64,000 bases of DNA from Escherichia phage vB_ECOLIGBLB0003. The translations under genes and the position numbers were made by a program. Positions 34,542-38,759 of this stretch are shown here, in pieces. The stretch lies in sequence record PV654517; one strand, 5' to 3'. The notes below the pieces were generated by a model that was given only the letters and a program-made list of their open reading frames with translations, had not been told where the DNA came from and made no database searches. Numbering within the stretch: position 1 is the stretch's first letter; every line of letters begins with the position of its first letter.

Positions 34542-34602
34542 TTTGTGTTCCTTATGTTATGTCAGTAAGACTACTGTAACACAACATAAGGAACTTGTAA
34601 AC
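34542..34602 (-). promoter_or_regulatory. Promoter-hairpin cassette A: early-type promoter (GTTTACA-N17-TACAGT) inside a 16-bp hairpin that pairs the downstream SD
   Basis: Minus strand reads GTTTACA AGTTCCTTATGTTGTGT TACAGT...; stem GTTCCTTATGTTGTGT pairs with ACATAACATAAGGAAC, which contains the AAGGA SD; near-identical copy at 49671-49728. Confidence 0.55.
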
Positions 34603-36659
34603 TACATTTTGAACTTTTTAGACATTCCGTTGATGTTAACCAAAGAAGCTAAGATTTGAGAAACTTCGTTTTCCTCTTCTTTTGATTCTTCTACAAGGAA
34701 TTGATTAAATCCAGCCATTGGACGAACTTCACCAGTTTCCATTAGATGGTCTCCATCATATACTGATTCTTCTAATTGTTCAGAAGGAGGAACGATTGTA
34801 CCTTCGATTAGATACTTGTTATAAGCAGTTTCTTTCATAAAGTACGTACTTACTTTATTAATCTTCAGTAAAATTCCACGCGGTAGAATAACTTCAGCTT
34901 CTGATGGAAATCCTGATAAATGACCTGGAACGATAACTTTGATTCGCTCAGCTCCTTTAATTACCATACCCACGCTAGTTTCAGCATCTTCATTAGCATA
35001 TGTAGAATGACTACCCATATGCATCAAATCTTCTGCATCAACGGAACCTTCTCCTTCACCAGAAAATACTGCGCCGGAATCATCTAGAGCCATATAGTTT
35101 TTACCATGCTCACCGAAGATATTTGGTTTAAGCGATGTGGATACGAAGTTCTTGAAATAGAACATTTTATTTTCAATGTTATGACGCAAAGTTTTAAAGG
35201 TAACTTCTTGTCCACGGTAAAGTGTAGTTCCTGGAGGAAGAACTGATCCTTTGGCAAACGCAGAATCTAACGTCTCGATGTGCTTAATAGCTCGTTCCAT
35301 GTATTCTTCACGGGTAGAATCTGGTTTACCCAAAAGGAACGAGTTCATTTCAACATATGAATCTGCACAATAATCTTCAATTACATCAGATTCAGCCTGA
35401 GTCAGTCCTTTTGGAGTTACTTCGGTGCTTGCGTATTCATATGCCTGGGCAGCAGATTCATTAATCAATTTATAAATGCCATTCATGACAAATTGAATAA
35501 TAGCTGTCTTTTCATCTGGTGTGGTTTTAGAACCTTTAACTAAATCATTAATAATTTTCTTAATAACATCAAAGCTATTAGAAATATTAATATCAGCAAG
35601 ATCGCTTAAAATTTTATCAGTTTTATAATCAAAGAATTCTTTATTCTTTAAATATTCTTGAGAACCTTGATATGTTATATCGCTCTGCAACTTGATAGAT
35701 GGATCACGTAAACGTGCATGGGCTAATGCAATATGATTTCGGAAGCTTTCTAGTTCATAATCGTTAGATTTAAAACGAGAAGCACTTCTCATACCACCGA
35801 TAGCTCCTTTGCTAAAGTTTGAACCAATCTGAATAACGCCAGAGTTCATCGGACCTTCTGCTTTATATACTGGAACTTTAGATTCAAACTCTTGATATTT
35901 CTTGGCAGCAAAGCTATCACCCTGAAGTGAAGCATCAACAGTAGAATATTGAGCTTGTGCTGCTAATCGACGACTGATTTTAGTTTTCTGAATAACAGCT
36001 TGGTCCGTGCGCTTATCATTTTCTAAAGCAATAGAAGCAGCAACAGCGACAGCTTTAGGAACAGCATTTCCTGTTTTAACGTCTACATAAACATCACCGA
36101 CCTTTGATTCAACTTTTGTGAATAACTCAGTTGAAATAGGAGGTACACCTGGAATGTCTTCTAAATTGGCATTTTTACGGTAAACCATAATATATGCATA
36201 TTTCTTATCATAGTCCCAGATTTCCTTTAAAAGAACATATCGACCTGCTCCTTTAGTACGTACTAAACGGTCAGCAATAACTTGCATTTGACGAGCTGCG
36301 CCATTTGTTTTACTTTTTAGTACGCGGAATAGGCATGCGTCGATTTTATACTGTTTCATTGTTTGAAGAGCAGTATCAAAAACGGCATTAATGACACCAA
36401 TTGGATTTCCACCCAAGTTTTTAAGTTTAACTAATGATAGTTTCTCGTTGACACCTATCATTACGATATGCATCATTTTATCGCCTGGCTTAACGTTTTT
36501 ATTCGTATCACCACCAGAGGTGTATGTACAAAATCTAAATCCCGGAAGCACGCTTTCTTCGCCGGCTTGAATAGCAAAAATTTGTGGTATTTTATGCTTA
36601 GGATTTAAGTTAACAACCGGCGCCGAAGCGCCGTCAAATAATTCTGTAATAAGTTCCAT
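34602..36659 (-). CDS. Alt-like ADP-ribosyltransferase paralog
   Basis: 685-aa ORF; first ~230 aa are near-identical in pattern to the adjacent Alt (MELITELFD..., KYAYI...RKN..LEDIPGVP.ISTELFTKVESKVGDVY); C-terminal ART motifs YRGQ, FVSTSL, PSEAEVILPRG. Confidence 0.8.
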   Translation of the reverse strand: MELITELFDGASAPVVNLNPKHKIPQIFAIQAGEESVLPGFRFCTYTSGGDTNKNVKPGDKMMHIVMIGVNEKLSLVKLKNLGGNPIGVINAVFDTALQTMKQYKIDACLFRVLKSKTNGAARQMQVIADRLVRTKGAGRYVLLKEIWDYDKKYAYIMVYRKNANLEDIPGVPPISTELFTKVESKVGDVYVDVKTGNAVPKAVAVAASIALENDKRTDQAVIQKTKISRRLAAQAQYSTVDASLQGDSFAAKKYQEFESKVPVYKAEGPMNSGVIQIGSNFSKGAIGGMRSASRFKSNDYELESFRNHIALAHARLRDPSIKLQSDITYQGSQEYLKNKEFFDYKTDKILSDLADINISNSFDVIKKIINDLVKGSKTTPDEKTAIIQFVMNGIYKLINESAAQAYEYASTEVTPKGLTQAESDVIEDYCADSYVEMNSFLLGKPDSTREEYMERAIKHIETLDSAFAKGSVLPPGTTLYRGQEVTFKTLRHNIENKMFYFKNFVSTSLKPNIFGEHGKNYMALDDSGAVFSGEGEGSVDAEDLMHMGSHSTYANEDAETSVGMVIKGAERIKVIVPGHLSGFPSEAEVILPRGILLKINKVSTYFMKETAYNKYLIEGTIVPPSEQLEESVYDGDHLMETGEVRPMAGFNQFLVEESKEEENEVSQILASLVNINGMSKKFKM

Positions 36660-36662
36660 GAT

Positions 36663-38759
36663 TTATCCTTGAACGAACTTGTAAGGCATGTTTGCAATAT
36701 CTATACAAGACGCAATAATTCCAAGAGATGATTCTACTTTCTGTTTAACATTTGATGAAACAAATGATGCAAAATCAACTCTGTCTTCTATTTCAATATC
36801 ACCTGTCATTGTAACTACTTCGCCGGTTTCCATTAGACGGTCACCGTCATAAATTACCGATTCGGTGAGTTCTTCTGTGGTCATAACTTCAGCTTGAATG
36901 AGTTTTGTATTATTAGATGTTGTTCCGTCATTATTAGAAGCATCAGTTATTTTATTAACTTTGACCATCAATCCGCGTGGTAGAATAACTTCAGCTTCTG
37001 TTGCTATTCCGAGACTTCCTGGATATACAACATTAACTTTATGTGCGCCGTCAATTGCCCATCCTATTTGAACTTTAACATATTCAGGATTTTCTTTATA
37101 CGCTCTTATTTCGCTTGGATTAATAGTTATTCCTTCTTCATTTTTATCAACTGTTAATTCATTTCGAGTTTCTGGTTCTAAAAGACCAATACCAGCATGT
37201 GTAATTCCAAAACGTCCAAAAATGATAGGAGTTAAAGAAGTAGATACAAAATTTCTGAAATAGAACACTTTATTTTTAACTAGCGCTTCGTATATAGGAG
37301 CAGTCATACTTTGAGCACGATAAACTGTGATGCCTTCCGGTATGCGGTCACCATTTTCAAAAGCTGAATCTAAATTATTTATAGCAGATTCAATTTCTTT
37401 TTCACTCATTACATCATATCGTTCTGGATTGTAGCGTCCTAAAAGAAGATTATTGATGTCAGTATATCCTGAACCACAATACTCTCTAATGCCGCGCTTT
37501 TGCGATGGAGTATATTTAGAACCATCACGGGCAATAGTAATATCAATCATTGGACCAGCACCAATTCCAGAAAAACTATAAATCATTCGTTTGAGGAATT
37601 TAGTTTTTGCTGCATTCCAGGCATTTTTAGTTATTTCTCTCCAGACTTCATCTGGTTGCCCTTTACGAGTTTTATTATGTTTATCAAGCCAATTATCTTT
37701 ATATTCTTCAAAGAATTTATTAACAGCTGCTGCGTATTTCTCTAAACATTTTATTGAAGTAGTTGGTTCATTTTTAATCGCATTAAGAATTACATCTTTA
37801 ATTTTTTCAGAAACTTCATTAACCTCACTTTTTGAAAAGAATTTATAGTCATAATGAAGTTCATCTGCAGTTCCTTCAGCAATAATTTTTGCTGCCTTAG
37901 TTTTAGAAGCTAATGAATTAATTCCAAGCTTCATTTCTTCTGCTTCGGGAATTAAAGGAGCGGTAGCAGGTTTATTTAATTCTGCTGCTGAAGCCTCAAA
38001 TTTTTGAAACATCGGCGTTTCAAATCTAGAAGATTCCAATGATTGACTTTGCGCAATTGCTCTACGGGAAATTTTAACTTTAACGATTACAGCTTGGTCA
38101 GAACGTTTATCATTTTCTTGCGCAATAGATGCTGCAATTGCCTCATTTTTAGTTACTTGAGCTCCAGTATCTTTATTGATATAAACATCACCGACCTTCG
38201 ATTCAACTTTAGTAAAGAGCTCGGTACTAATTTCCGGAACTCCTGGAATGTCTTCTAGAGATACATTTTTGCGATGTATAAGAATATATGCATACTTTTT
38301 ATCATAATCCCAGAGTTCCTTAAGAAGGACGTATCTGCCACCTGAACGACTGCGGATAAGTCTATCAGCAATAACTTGAATTTGTCGAGCTTGACCAGCG
38401 GTTTTAGACTTAAGAATACGGAGCATACAGGCATCAATTTTATACTGACGCATTGTTTGCATTGCAACAGTAAAAACTGAATTGATATAATTAATTGGGC
38501 TTGGACCAAGACCTTTTAATTTAGCAATTGAACCTTTAGCAGTTAATGTAAAAGGAACAATATGCATCATTTTATCGCCCATCTTTAAATCGCGATTAGT
38601 ATCACCTCCAGATGTATAGGTACATAAACGAAAGCCTGGTTGTTCAATTGCATCATCAACATGAACTGAAAAAATTTGTGGTATTTTCTTCTTTGGATTT
38701 AAGTTTGTAATTGGAAGAGTAGTATCTTCGTCAAATAATTCTGTAATGAGTTCCATCAT
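36663..38759 (-). CDS. alt: Alt ADP-ribosyltransferase (virion-packaged RNA polymerase modifier)
   Basis: 698-aa ORF (the second ATG at 38756 would give MELITELF...); R-S-EXE-type motifs YRAQ, FVSTSL, TEAEVILPRG; late promoter and SD GAGAGGA upstream. Confidence 0.85.
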   Translation of the reverse strand: MMELITELFDEDTTLPITNLNPKKKIPQIFSVHVDDAIEQPGFRLCTYTSGGDTNRDLKMGDKMMHIVPFTLTAKGSIAKLKGLGPSPINYINSVFTVAMQTMRQYKIDACMLRILKSKTAGQARQIQVIADRLIRSRSGGRYVLLKELWDYDKKYAYILIHRKNVSLEDIPGVPEISTELFTKVESKVGDVYINKDTGAQVTKNEAIAASIAQENDKRSDQAVIVKVKISRRAIAQSQSLESSRFETPMFQKFEASAAELNKPATAPLIPEAEEMKLGINSLASKTKAAKIIAEGTADELHYDYKFFSKSEVNEVSEKIKDVILNAIKNEPTTSIKCLEKYAAAVNKFFEEYKDNWLDKHNKTRKGQPDEVWREITKNAWNAAKTKFLKRMIYSFSGIGAGPMIDITIARDGSKYTPSQKRGIREYCGSGYTDINNLLLGRYNPERYDVMSEKEIESAINNLDSAFENGDRIPEGITVYRAQSMTAPIYEALVKNKVFYFRNFVSTSLTPIIFGRFGITHAGIGLLEPETRNELTVDKNEEGITINPSEIRAYKENPEYVKVQIGWAIDGAHKVNVVYPGSLGIATEAEVILPRGLMVKVNKITDASNNDGTTSNNTKLIQAEVMTTEELTESVIYDGDRLMETGEVVTMTGDIEIEDRVDFASFVSSNVKQKVESSLGIIASCIDIANMPYKFVQG

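Follow-up and report, generated by a model that had tools for sequence, protein, structure and literature searches.

Alt of bacteriophage T4 (gpAlt, NP_049811), a head-packaged NAD:arginine mono-ADP-ribosyltransferase, is the textbook example of an injected phage enzyme, and nearly all work on it has been done in T4, whose second copy of the gene is broken. Mass spectrometry of T4 heads has shown that the protease gp21 cuts Alt at ITE-6, taking off six residues, and after LTE-619, taking off 63, to give a mature protein of 68.2 kDa (PMC5694885; PMC9026906). According to the T4 record, two small open reading frames (ORFs), alt.-1 and alt.-2, go back to an old duplication that affected the beginning of alt; Nolan et al. 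listed both in 2006 (PMC1524935) as paralogous alt duplications, along with a full-length second alt of phage 44RR. In the record of phage RB32 the gene downstream of alt is named alt.-2 and carries the note 'similar to alt'. Here we analyse the corresponding locus in a window of 64,000 nucleotides from Escherichia phage vB_ECOLIGBLB0003 (record PV654517), a T-even, T2/RB32-like Tequatrovirus. Two long minus-strand ORFs lie there in tandem, an upstream alt (protein A) and a downstream alt.-2 (protein B). We put at roughly three in four the probability that alt and its full-length paralogue constitute the normal two-gene alt locus of Tequatroviruses, that they are expressed together late in infection, and that both products are packaged and injected and act on different host targets. 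The homology of the two genes, their intact catalytic and cleavage motifs, purifying selection, a conserved junction, wide distribution and mosaic evolution are established below.

A first-pass annotation of the window had recorded the pair as ORFs of 698 and 685 amino acids separated by 3 nt. The coordinates, 36663-38759 and 34602-36659, are confirmed; the observation is real and its interpretation essentially right. The novelty that it implied does not survive: a paper of 2006 had already taken note of the pair, and annotations of both genes exist for RB32, T2 and hundreds of further genomes. What our analysis newly supports is that the second copy would be a working gene, by way of low ratios of nonsynonymous to synonymous substitution (dN/dS), conserved gp21 sites and a ribosome-binding site in the last codons of alt.

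Judged by sequence, the two genes belong to the Alt family over their full length. Pairwise alignment shows collinear homology of A and B over their full length, with 41% identity end to end (BLASTP, E 6e-159), and over the full length of T4 Alt the identities are 72% for A and 41% for B (BLASTP). Both match the family phrog_802 (A over residues 1-696 at 1.6e-271, B over residues 1-685 at 1.7e-256), and PF03496, for which the curated cut-off is 23.4 bits, scores 128.7 bits in A and 72.0 bits in B. The shared N-terminal module of about 230 residues described in the first-pass annotation stands, with 68% identity over residues 1-237. The extensive divergence described beyond it needs qualifying: the helical middle, from residue 238 to about 410, is the most divergent part, with identity of about 10-20%, but the catalytic core (34%) and the C-terminal ~60 residues (42% over the last 65) are clearly homologous.

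Both of the gp21 cleavage motifs of T4 Alt are present in the second protein. The MELITE start is identical in A and B, and the second motif, LTE-632 in A (which corresponds to LTE-619 of T4 Alt) and LEE-631 in B, is followed in each by S-V-x-YDGD-x-LMETGE. In an alignment of diverse family members, [LIM]-x-E-[SA] and the invariant YDGD..E.GE block are conserved in 15 of 15 sequences, and across 66 members E6 and the glutamate of the C-terminal cleavage site are at least 90% conserved. Such conservation would be pointless in a protein never exposed to the prohead protease; we therefore infer by analogy with T4 Alt that the alt.-2 product is also packaged, trimmed and injected, and the conservation strengthens the earlier suggestion of two injected effectors. 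The companion suggestion, that the N-terminal module is the packaging or processing region, holds only in part. The gp21 sites lie at the two extreme ends of the protein, and since processing in T4 removes only six N-terminal and 63 C-terminal residues, the N-domain of ~230 residues stays in the mature enzyme; it may nevertheless have a role in packaging. It could be argued instead that B is made and is active but stays out of the head, acting late in the producing cell with an N-domain that serves, for example, to bind targets or nucleic acid. We consider this improbable, as the conserved cleavage motifs and C-terminal propeptide are sensible only inside the prohead and alt and alt.-2 would be expressed late from a shared mRNA.

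The second gene is also widespread. The 4.8-kb region of the locus matches 541 phage records, and in at least 390 of them the match extends over 80% or more of the region, with identity of roughly 95-97%. Two 'Alt-like RNA polymerase ADP-ribosyltransferase' genes are annotated in many of the records, and RefSeq names both Alt-like. The DNA of the locus is ~97% identical to that of RB32, and B falls into a 99%-identical cluster of 772 member sequences. Whether T4 shares the duplication, which had been left as a question, can be answered: it does, as a broken remnant only. Of the second copy T4 retains the first ~348 nt (~116 codons), in which a stop codon separates alt.-1 from alt.-2; it then lacks ~1.69 kb (36311-34622 of the window) and resumes ~20 nt before the stop of the downstream gene. 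The families of these two T4 ORFs, phrog_23015 and phrog_15247, match B at 2e-40 and 3e-38 and A at 1e-21 and 2e-19, respectively. A query laid across the T4 deletion junction aligns in one piece in 91 records and is split in the rest of 499. With the intact pair in at least 390 records and the T4-type junction in 91, the pair is the common state and T4 is in the minority.

The condition of T4 and of 91 related records, in which only the first ~116 codons remain, broken by a stop and followed by the deletion, together with the full viability of T4 without an intact second copy, could suggest that the downstream gene has no present role and is a redundant copy in the process of being lost. This seems very unlikely to us. 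The gene is intact in about 390-400 records, and in comparison with its RB32 and JB75 orthologues dN/dS is 0.017-0.056 in the N-domain, the middle and the catalytic domain (omega 0.02-0.06 across domains, at a synonymous divergence, dS, of 0.03-0.15) and 0-0.12 in the short C-terminal propeptide. The values for the three domains therefore indicate strong purifying selection, not decay. Furthermore, the catalytic and cleavage motifs of the downstream gene are invariant, and a B-type orthologue has been retained in the distant Dhakavirus MX01.

Both proteins carry the R-S-ExE triad that had been ascribed to them, A as YRAQ-479, FVSTS-503 and EAEVILPRG-587 and B as YRGQ-481, FVSTS-505 and EAEVILPRG-587. 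Careful alignment finds no loss of catalytic residues in either copy: R, S-T-S and E-x-E are invariant in the 15-sequence alignment and at least 90% conserved in the 66-sequence alignment of distant relatives, and the R and E-x-E of the Alt proteins align with the motifs of CdtA and iota toxin. Profile and structure comparison of the C-terminal domains gives PF03496 in both proteins and a C3/VIP2-like fold in a model of B. In this AlphaFold model, which has a mean predicted local distance difference test score (pLDDT) of 74.5, residues 1-10 and 629-685 are disordered (the latter with pLDDT below 50), and the C-terminal domain matches Vis, C3bot, CDTa and VIP2 (Foldseek E 8e-7 to 3e-4, probability 1.00). 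NCBIfam has no match for either Alt protein, and no solved structure of an Alt protein turned up when the PDB was searched by sequence, the best hits being weak matches to CdtA and iota Ia limited to the catalytic motifs. Although paralogous enzyme pairs often include a pseudoenzyme, and one distant metagenomic member of the family (P0183) has K for the catalytic R and N-x-E for E-x-E, the R, S-T-S, E-x-E and surrounding ILPRG are intact in both A and B and both score well above the Pfam threshold, which makes it most improbable that one copy is catalytically dead and serves as partner, decoy or scaffold for the other.

According to the reading that we prefer, alt, alt.-2 and possibly alt.-3 would be transcribed into one late mRNA from the promoter at 38787-38780, and alt.-2 would be translated from a Shine-Dalgarno sequence within the last codons of alt. 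Each product would have five parts, namely a 6-residue N-terminal propeptide, the N-domain of ~230 residues, a variable helical region, an R-S-E transferase of the arginine type (E-x-E) and a C-terminal propeptide of ~55-65 residues. On the model of T4 Alt, both proteins would be incorporated into the prohead core, lose their two ends to gp21 (at ITE-6 and at LTE-632 or LEE-631), remain in the head and be injected with the DNA. Inside the host the two would be expected to ADP-ribosylate different sets of proteins, because their helical and catalytic parts are only 10-34% identical. For the alt.-2 product, we infer each of these steps: enzymatic activity, targets, packaging, processing and injection.

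Several points weigh against this account. T4 does well with its second copy destroyed, so the gene must be dispensable, at least in laboratory hosts. Any packaging role of the N-domain is putative, and the internal proteins of T4 need only a targeting sequence of ~10 residues. The catalytic competence of the proteins is judged from alignment and from a model of medium confidence. Finally, the searchable literature yielded no proteomics, enzymology or genetics of any alt.-2 product; searches on alt.-2, Alt-like paralogues and the virion proteomics of the pair returned only the 2006 comparative paper and unrelated matches.

Expression signals at the locus are consistent with late co-transcription. 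On the minus strand, the T4-type late octamer TATAAATA occupies 38787-38780 and precedes GAGAGGA; it is equally placed in RB32 and JB75, and one also lies 5' of alt in T4. Across the 64,000-nt window the octamer is enriched, with 19 found against 9.2 expected. The first-pass annotation had assigned a late promoter to the upstream gene only, and while the site at 38780-38787 is as described, a second exact TATAAATA exists within alt, at 37383-37376 (37376-37383, minus strand), 724 nt 5' of the alt.-2 start, where about 0.15 matches would be expected by chance on one strand of a gene of this length. This internal octamer is present in the A-type allele (this phage and RB32) and absent from T4-type alleles, including that of JB75, and it is probably a by-product of the codons for I-N-N. 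Since JB75 lacks it and yet has an intact second gene, it is not needed for expression of the second gene, and we have rejected it as a required promoter of alt.-2.

Co-transcription of alt and alt.-2 from the late promoter at 38787-38780, as had been proposed, is supported at the level of sequence, since it fits the 3-nt gap, the ribosome-binding site embedded in the stop region of alt, and a terminator scan in which the minus strand showed no candidate site between alt and alt.-2. The junction of alt and alt.-2, caaggataaatcATGGAA, is identical in this phage, T4, RB32 and JB75, and Dhakavirus MX01 has an analogous caagggtaaataATGGAA at both of its alt junctions. On the upstream side, a terminator-like hairpin at 38793..38810, which is not in the list of the terminator scan but whose JB75 equivalent is annotated as a rho-independent terminator, would separate upstream transcripts from the alt operon; at the other end, the terminator at 34225..34246 is likely to form the 3' end of the operon transcript. 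The upstream gene likely starts at the second of two in-frame ATG codons (38756, MELITE...), as annotated in T4 and RB32; the GAGG element is spaced 5 nt from this codon and only 2 nt from the first (38759).

Comparison with other phages indicates that the parts of Alt have had separate histories. A is identical or nearly identical to T4 Alt in residues 1-264, and identity is then ~20% over 265-402, ~60% over 403-600 and ~95% from 606, with dS across the four parts of 0.07, 1.17, 1.19 and 0.25. In comparison with the first Alt copy of MX01, which belongs to a different genus (Dhakavirus) and whose flanking genes have 58-67% protein identity to those of this phage, the N-domain of A shows 46% identity (dS 1.9) and the catalytic domain 94% (dS 0.53). 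Because differences in rate alone cannot yield both the T4 and the MX01 patterns, we conclude that different lineages have exchanged the central and catalytic segment, with the N-domain and the termini following the phage lineage. A T4-type alt allele is found together with an intact second gene in JB75. Recent gene conversion between the two N-domains of the present genome is ruled out by the dS of 1.44 between them.

Copy number varies as well: most Tequatroviruses have two alt genes, Dhakavirus has three, and many other genera have a single one. The three tandem Alt-like genes of MX01 (5995-12255 of its sequence) encode proteins of 694, 681 and 707 amino acids and are separated by 3-nt gaps; by catalytic type, copy 1 is A-type (94%), copy 3 is B-type (60%) and copy 2 represents a third type. 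Their N-domains are 67-88% identical to one another and only 42-46% identical to those of this phage. Upstream copies end in ...KF[VI]QG and the final copy in ...KFKM. T4 Alt is reported to help the phage to evade the Mokosh type I defence, a role in which the Alt of phage Bas37 cannot replace it (preprint 10.1101/2025.11.20.689424), a lack of interchangeability that fits functional divergence of Alt alleles.

These patterns allow a broader and more tentative view, which we think is possible although the odds are against it. The alt locus would be an expandable array of one to three injected effector cassettes, in which a carrier that is fixed within a lineage (the N-domain plus the two propeptides removed by the protease) is joined to helical and catalytic parts that are swapped, even across genera, in an arms race with host defences; the N-domain of this carrier would perhaps extend beyond Alt, and include phrog_3867 of the Ackermannviridae. 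Modelled alone with 66 sequences, the N-domain gives a confident fold, with a pLDDT of 88.3 and a predicted template modelling score (pTM) of 0.85. By sequence search it occurs in 69 of 1.84 billion representative clusters, always N-terminally, and most of the ten clusters checked are Alt-sized proteins with a transferase domain. The notion of a widespread carrier detectable by sequence was rejected on these counts, with so few clusters and nearly all of those checked Alt-like. Two metagenomic proteins differ in architecture: one of 541 amino acids (P0184) joins the N-module to a different middle domain and has no recognisable transferase domain, and another of 786 amino acids (P0187) has the N-module, the same type of middle domain as P0184 and a transferase domain.

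Searched against predicted viral structures, the N-domain matches large uncharacterised proteins of Ackermannviridae and of Vibrio, Aeromonas, Agrobacterium and uncultured phages (Foldseek E 1e-7 to 1e-4, template modelling score ~0.5), and for some of the matched Vibrio, Aeromonas and Agrobacterium phage proteins the annotation includes a different effector domain, for example Zeta toxin or deaminase. Protein DA66_0048 of Dickeya phage RC-2014 (34893-36488 of its sequence) matches the Alt N-domain with a Foldseek E of 3e-7, and an Alt profile aligns with its residues 13-195 at an hhalign probability of 69% (E 4e-5), or 62% (7e-5) when a 20-sequence family alignment is used. The phrog_3867 proteins of Ackermannviridae have no Pfam domain and a total length of 486-929 amino acids, and their layout is that of Alt (conserved N part, variable centre, conserved C part): a near-invariant N-terminal region of ~190 residues, a centre that varies in content and length, and a conserved C-terminal region of ~130 residues. 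Their QLDE|AF aligns on ITE|LF of Alt. The N part of phrog_3867 is possibly a remote homologue of the Alt N-domain, which we offer as a weak lead and not as a result. In public annotation, nearly all full-length homologues of Alt (P0001-P0120) also carry a second Pfam family, PF26846, which may be an existing description of the N-domain.

The features of the locus are collected in Table 1.

Table 1. Features of the alt locus in the 64,000-nt window.
Feature	Position	Strand	Remarks
Upstream ORF	36663-38759	-	698 amino acids as open reading frame
alt (upstream copy, A)	36663..38756	-	697 amino acids from second ATG; in-frame ATG at 38759
A: N-terminal propeptide MELITE, gp21 site ITE-6 at its end	38739..38756	-	Identical to T4 Alt
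A: conserved N-domain, residues 7-237	38046..38738	-	100% identity to T4 Alt, 68% to B; dS to T4 0.07
A: hypervariable helical middle, residues 238-410	37527..38045	-	36% identity to T4 Alt, 10% to B; dS to T4 1.17
A: ADP-ribosyltransferase domain, residues 411-628	36873..37526	-	PF03496 at 2.3e-37; R480, S505-T-S507, E587-A-E589
A: C-terminal propeptide, residues 633-697, after LTE-632	36666..36860	-	97% identity to T4; ends ...KFVQG
alt TAA stop	36663-36665	-	Followed by 3 nt, then the alt.-2 ATG
alt.-2 (downstream copy, B)	34602..36659	-	685 amino acids, intact Alt paralogue
B: N-terminal propeptide MELITE (ITE-6 site)	36642..36659	-	
B: conserved N-domain, residues 7-237, alpha/beta fold	35949..36641	-	
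B: helical middle, residues 238-415	35415..35948	-	All-helical prediction, pLDDT 80-92; 10% identity to A
B: ADP-ribosyltransferase domain, residues 416-628	34776..35414	-	PF03496 at 5.3e-20; R482, S507-T-S509, E587-A-E589
B: predicted C-terminal propeptide, residues 632-685, after LEE-631	34605..34766	-	Ends ...KFKM
Late promoter TATAAATA, T4-type	38780..38787	-	Exact match, 24-31 nt 5' of the alt start
Terminator-like hairpin AAAGGCC-TTCG-GGCCTTT, then AATTTT	38793..38810	-	Read from the sequence; overlaps the alt.1 stop
Shine-Dalgarno AAGGA for alt.-2	36666..36670	-	Within the final two codons (Q-G) of alt
RNA hairpin between alt.-2 stop and alt.-3 start	34547..34594	-	3' arm over the alt.-3 Shine-Dalgarno AAGGAA
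alt.-3, 96 amino acids, DUF5498, final gene of the cluster	34251..34541	-	PF17602 at 1.4e-64
Bidirectional terminator, alt.-3/gene 54 interval	34225..34246	.	From the terminator scan; also annotated in JB75

Near the locus the plus strand carries genes 29, 48 and 54, and the minus strand alt.-3, the two long ORFs, alt.1 and the DNA ligase gene 30. The 62-residue ORF alt.1 (38809-38997, minus strand), between the ligase gene and alt, matches PF24647 'Phage blade protein' at 1.3e-28. At the other end, alt.-3 encodes the orthologue of T4 Alt.-3; T4 mutants with a C-terminal extension of Alt.-3 evade the CmdTAC defence by blocking degradation of CmdA (PMC11618068). The RNA hairpin preceding alt.-3 (34547-34594) folds at -26.9 kcal/mol, with a z score of -6.96 and 0 of 200 shuffles folding as well, and a sigma-70/T4-early-like promoter at 34601-34573 (TTTACA, 17-nt spacer, TG-TACAGT) would start transcription within it. 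The alt.-3 ribosome site would be hidden in late mRNA reading through from upstream and exposed in transcripts from the internal promoter. Such an arrangement, a hairpin-hidden ribosome site with an internal promoter, is known for the T4 genes e and soc.

As regards known systems, the upstream gene is the positional orthologue of T4 alt, in the interval from alt.1/ligase to gene 54. Its product is nearly identical to T4 Alt over residues 1-264 and over the last ~90 residues, and the late promoter, the ITE-6 and LTE motifs and the R-S-ExE residues are common to both; the difference lies in the central and catalytic part, which is a different allele, with E-M-E in T4 and E-A-E in A. The downstream gene corresponds to alt.-2 of RB32 and to the second Alt-like gene of T2 and ~400 Tequatroviruses, from which it does not differ in any notable way, its length, position and 3-nt gap being alike. 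The homology of the small T4 ORFs alt.-1 and alt.-2 with the downstream gene covers its codons 1-116, and the alt junction is shared too, but the T4 copy is broken by a stop and lacks ~1.69 kb. In most relatives of T4 two different Alt enzymes are encoded, if not also injected, and in some of them three. Should the second enzyme prove to have targets of its own, accounts of host take-over based on T4 are incomplete for most T-even phages.

Beyond the phages, the catalytic fold and motifs of the Alt proteins are those of the C3 exoenzymes, Vis, and VIP2, iota Ia, CDTa and C2-I (PF03496). The C3/VIP2-type enzymes are secreted bacterial toxins with other delivery domains and only 14-21% sequence identity to the Alt proteins, which have in addition a phage-specific N-domain, the helical region and two propeptides. 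Another pair of T4 enzymes, ModA and ModB, is not known to have the Alt N-domain and propeptides. These are likewise adjacent R-S-E ADP-ribosyltransferases that act on host proteins (PMC5512222, PMC9503650), but unlike Alt they are not injected from the phage head (PMC5512222). A parallel in logic is offered by the head-packaged effector carriers, namely the capsid targeting sequence of T4 internal proteins and the MuF-fused effectors and polyvalent proteins, in which a conserved part that associates with the head is combined with a variable injected effector (PMC3012670, PMC9503650). Alt shares this logic of carrier plus effector, and a conserved carrier with a swappable effector could serve for the delivery of chosen proteins from phage heads. 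The Alt N-domain is, however, not MuF, and has no Pfam match in the copy of Pfam that was searched; if it does occur beyond Alt, it would be a second general head-delivery module besides MuF.

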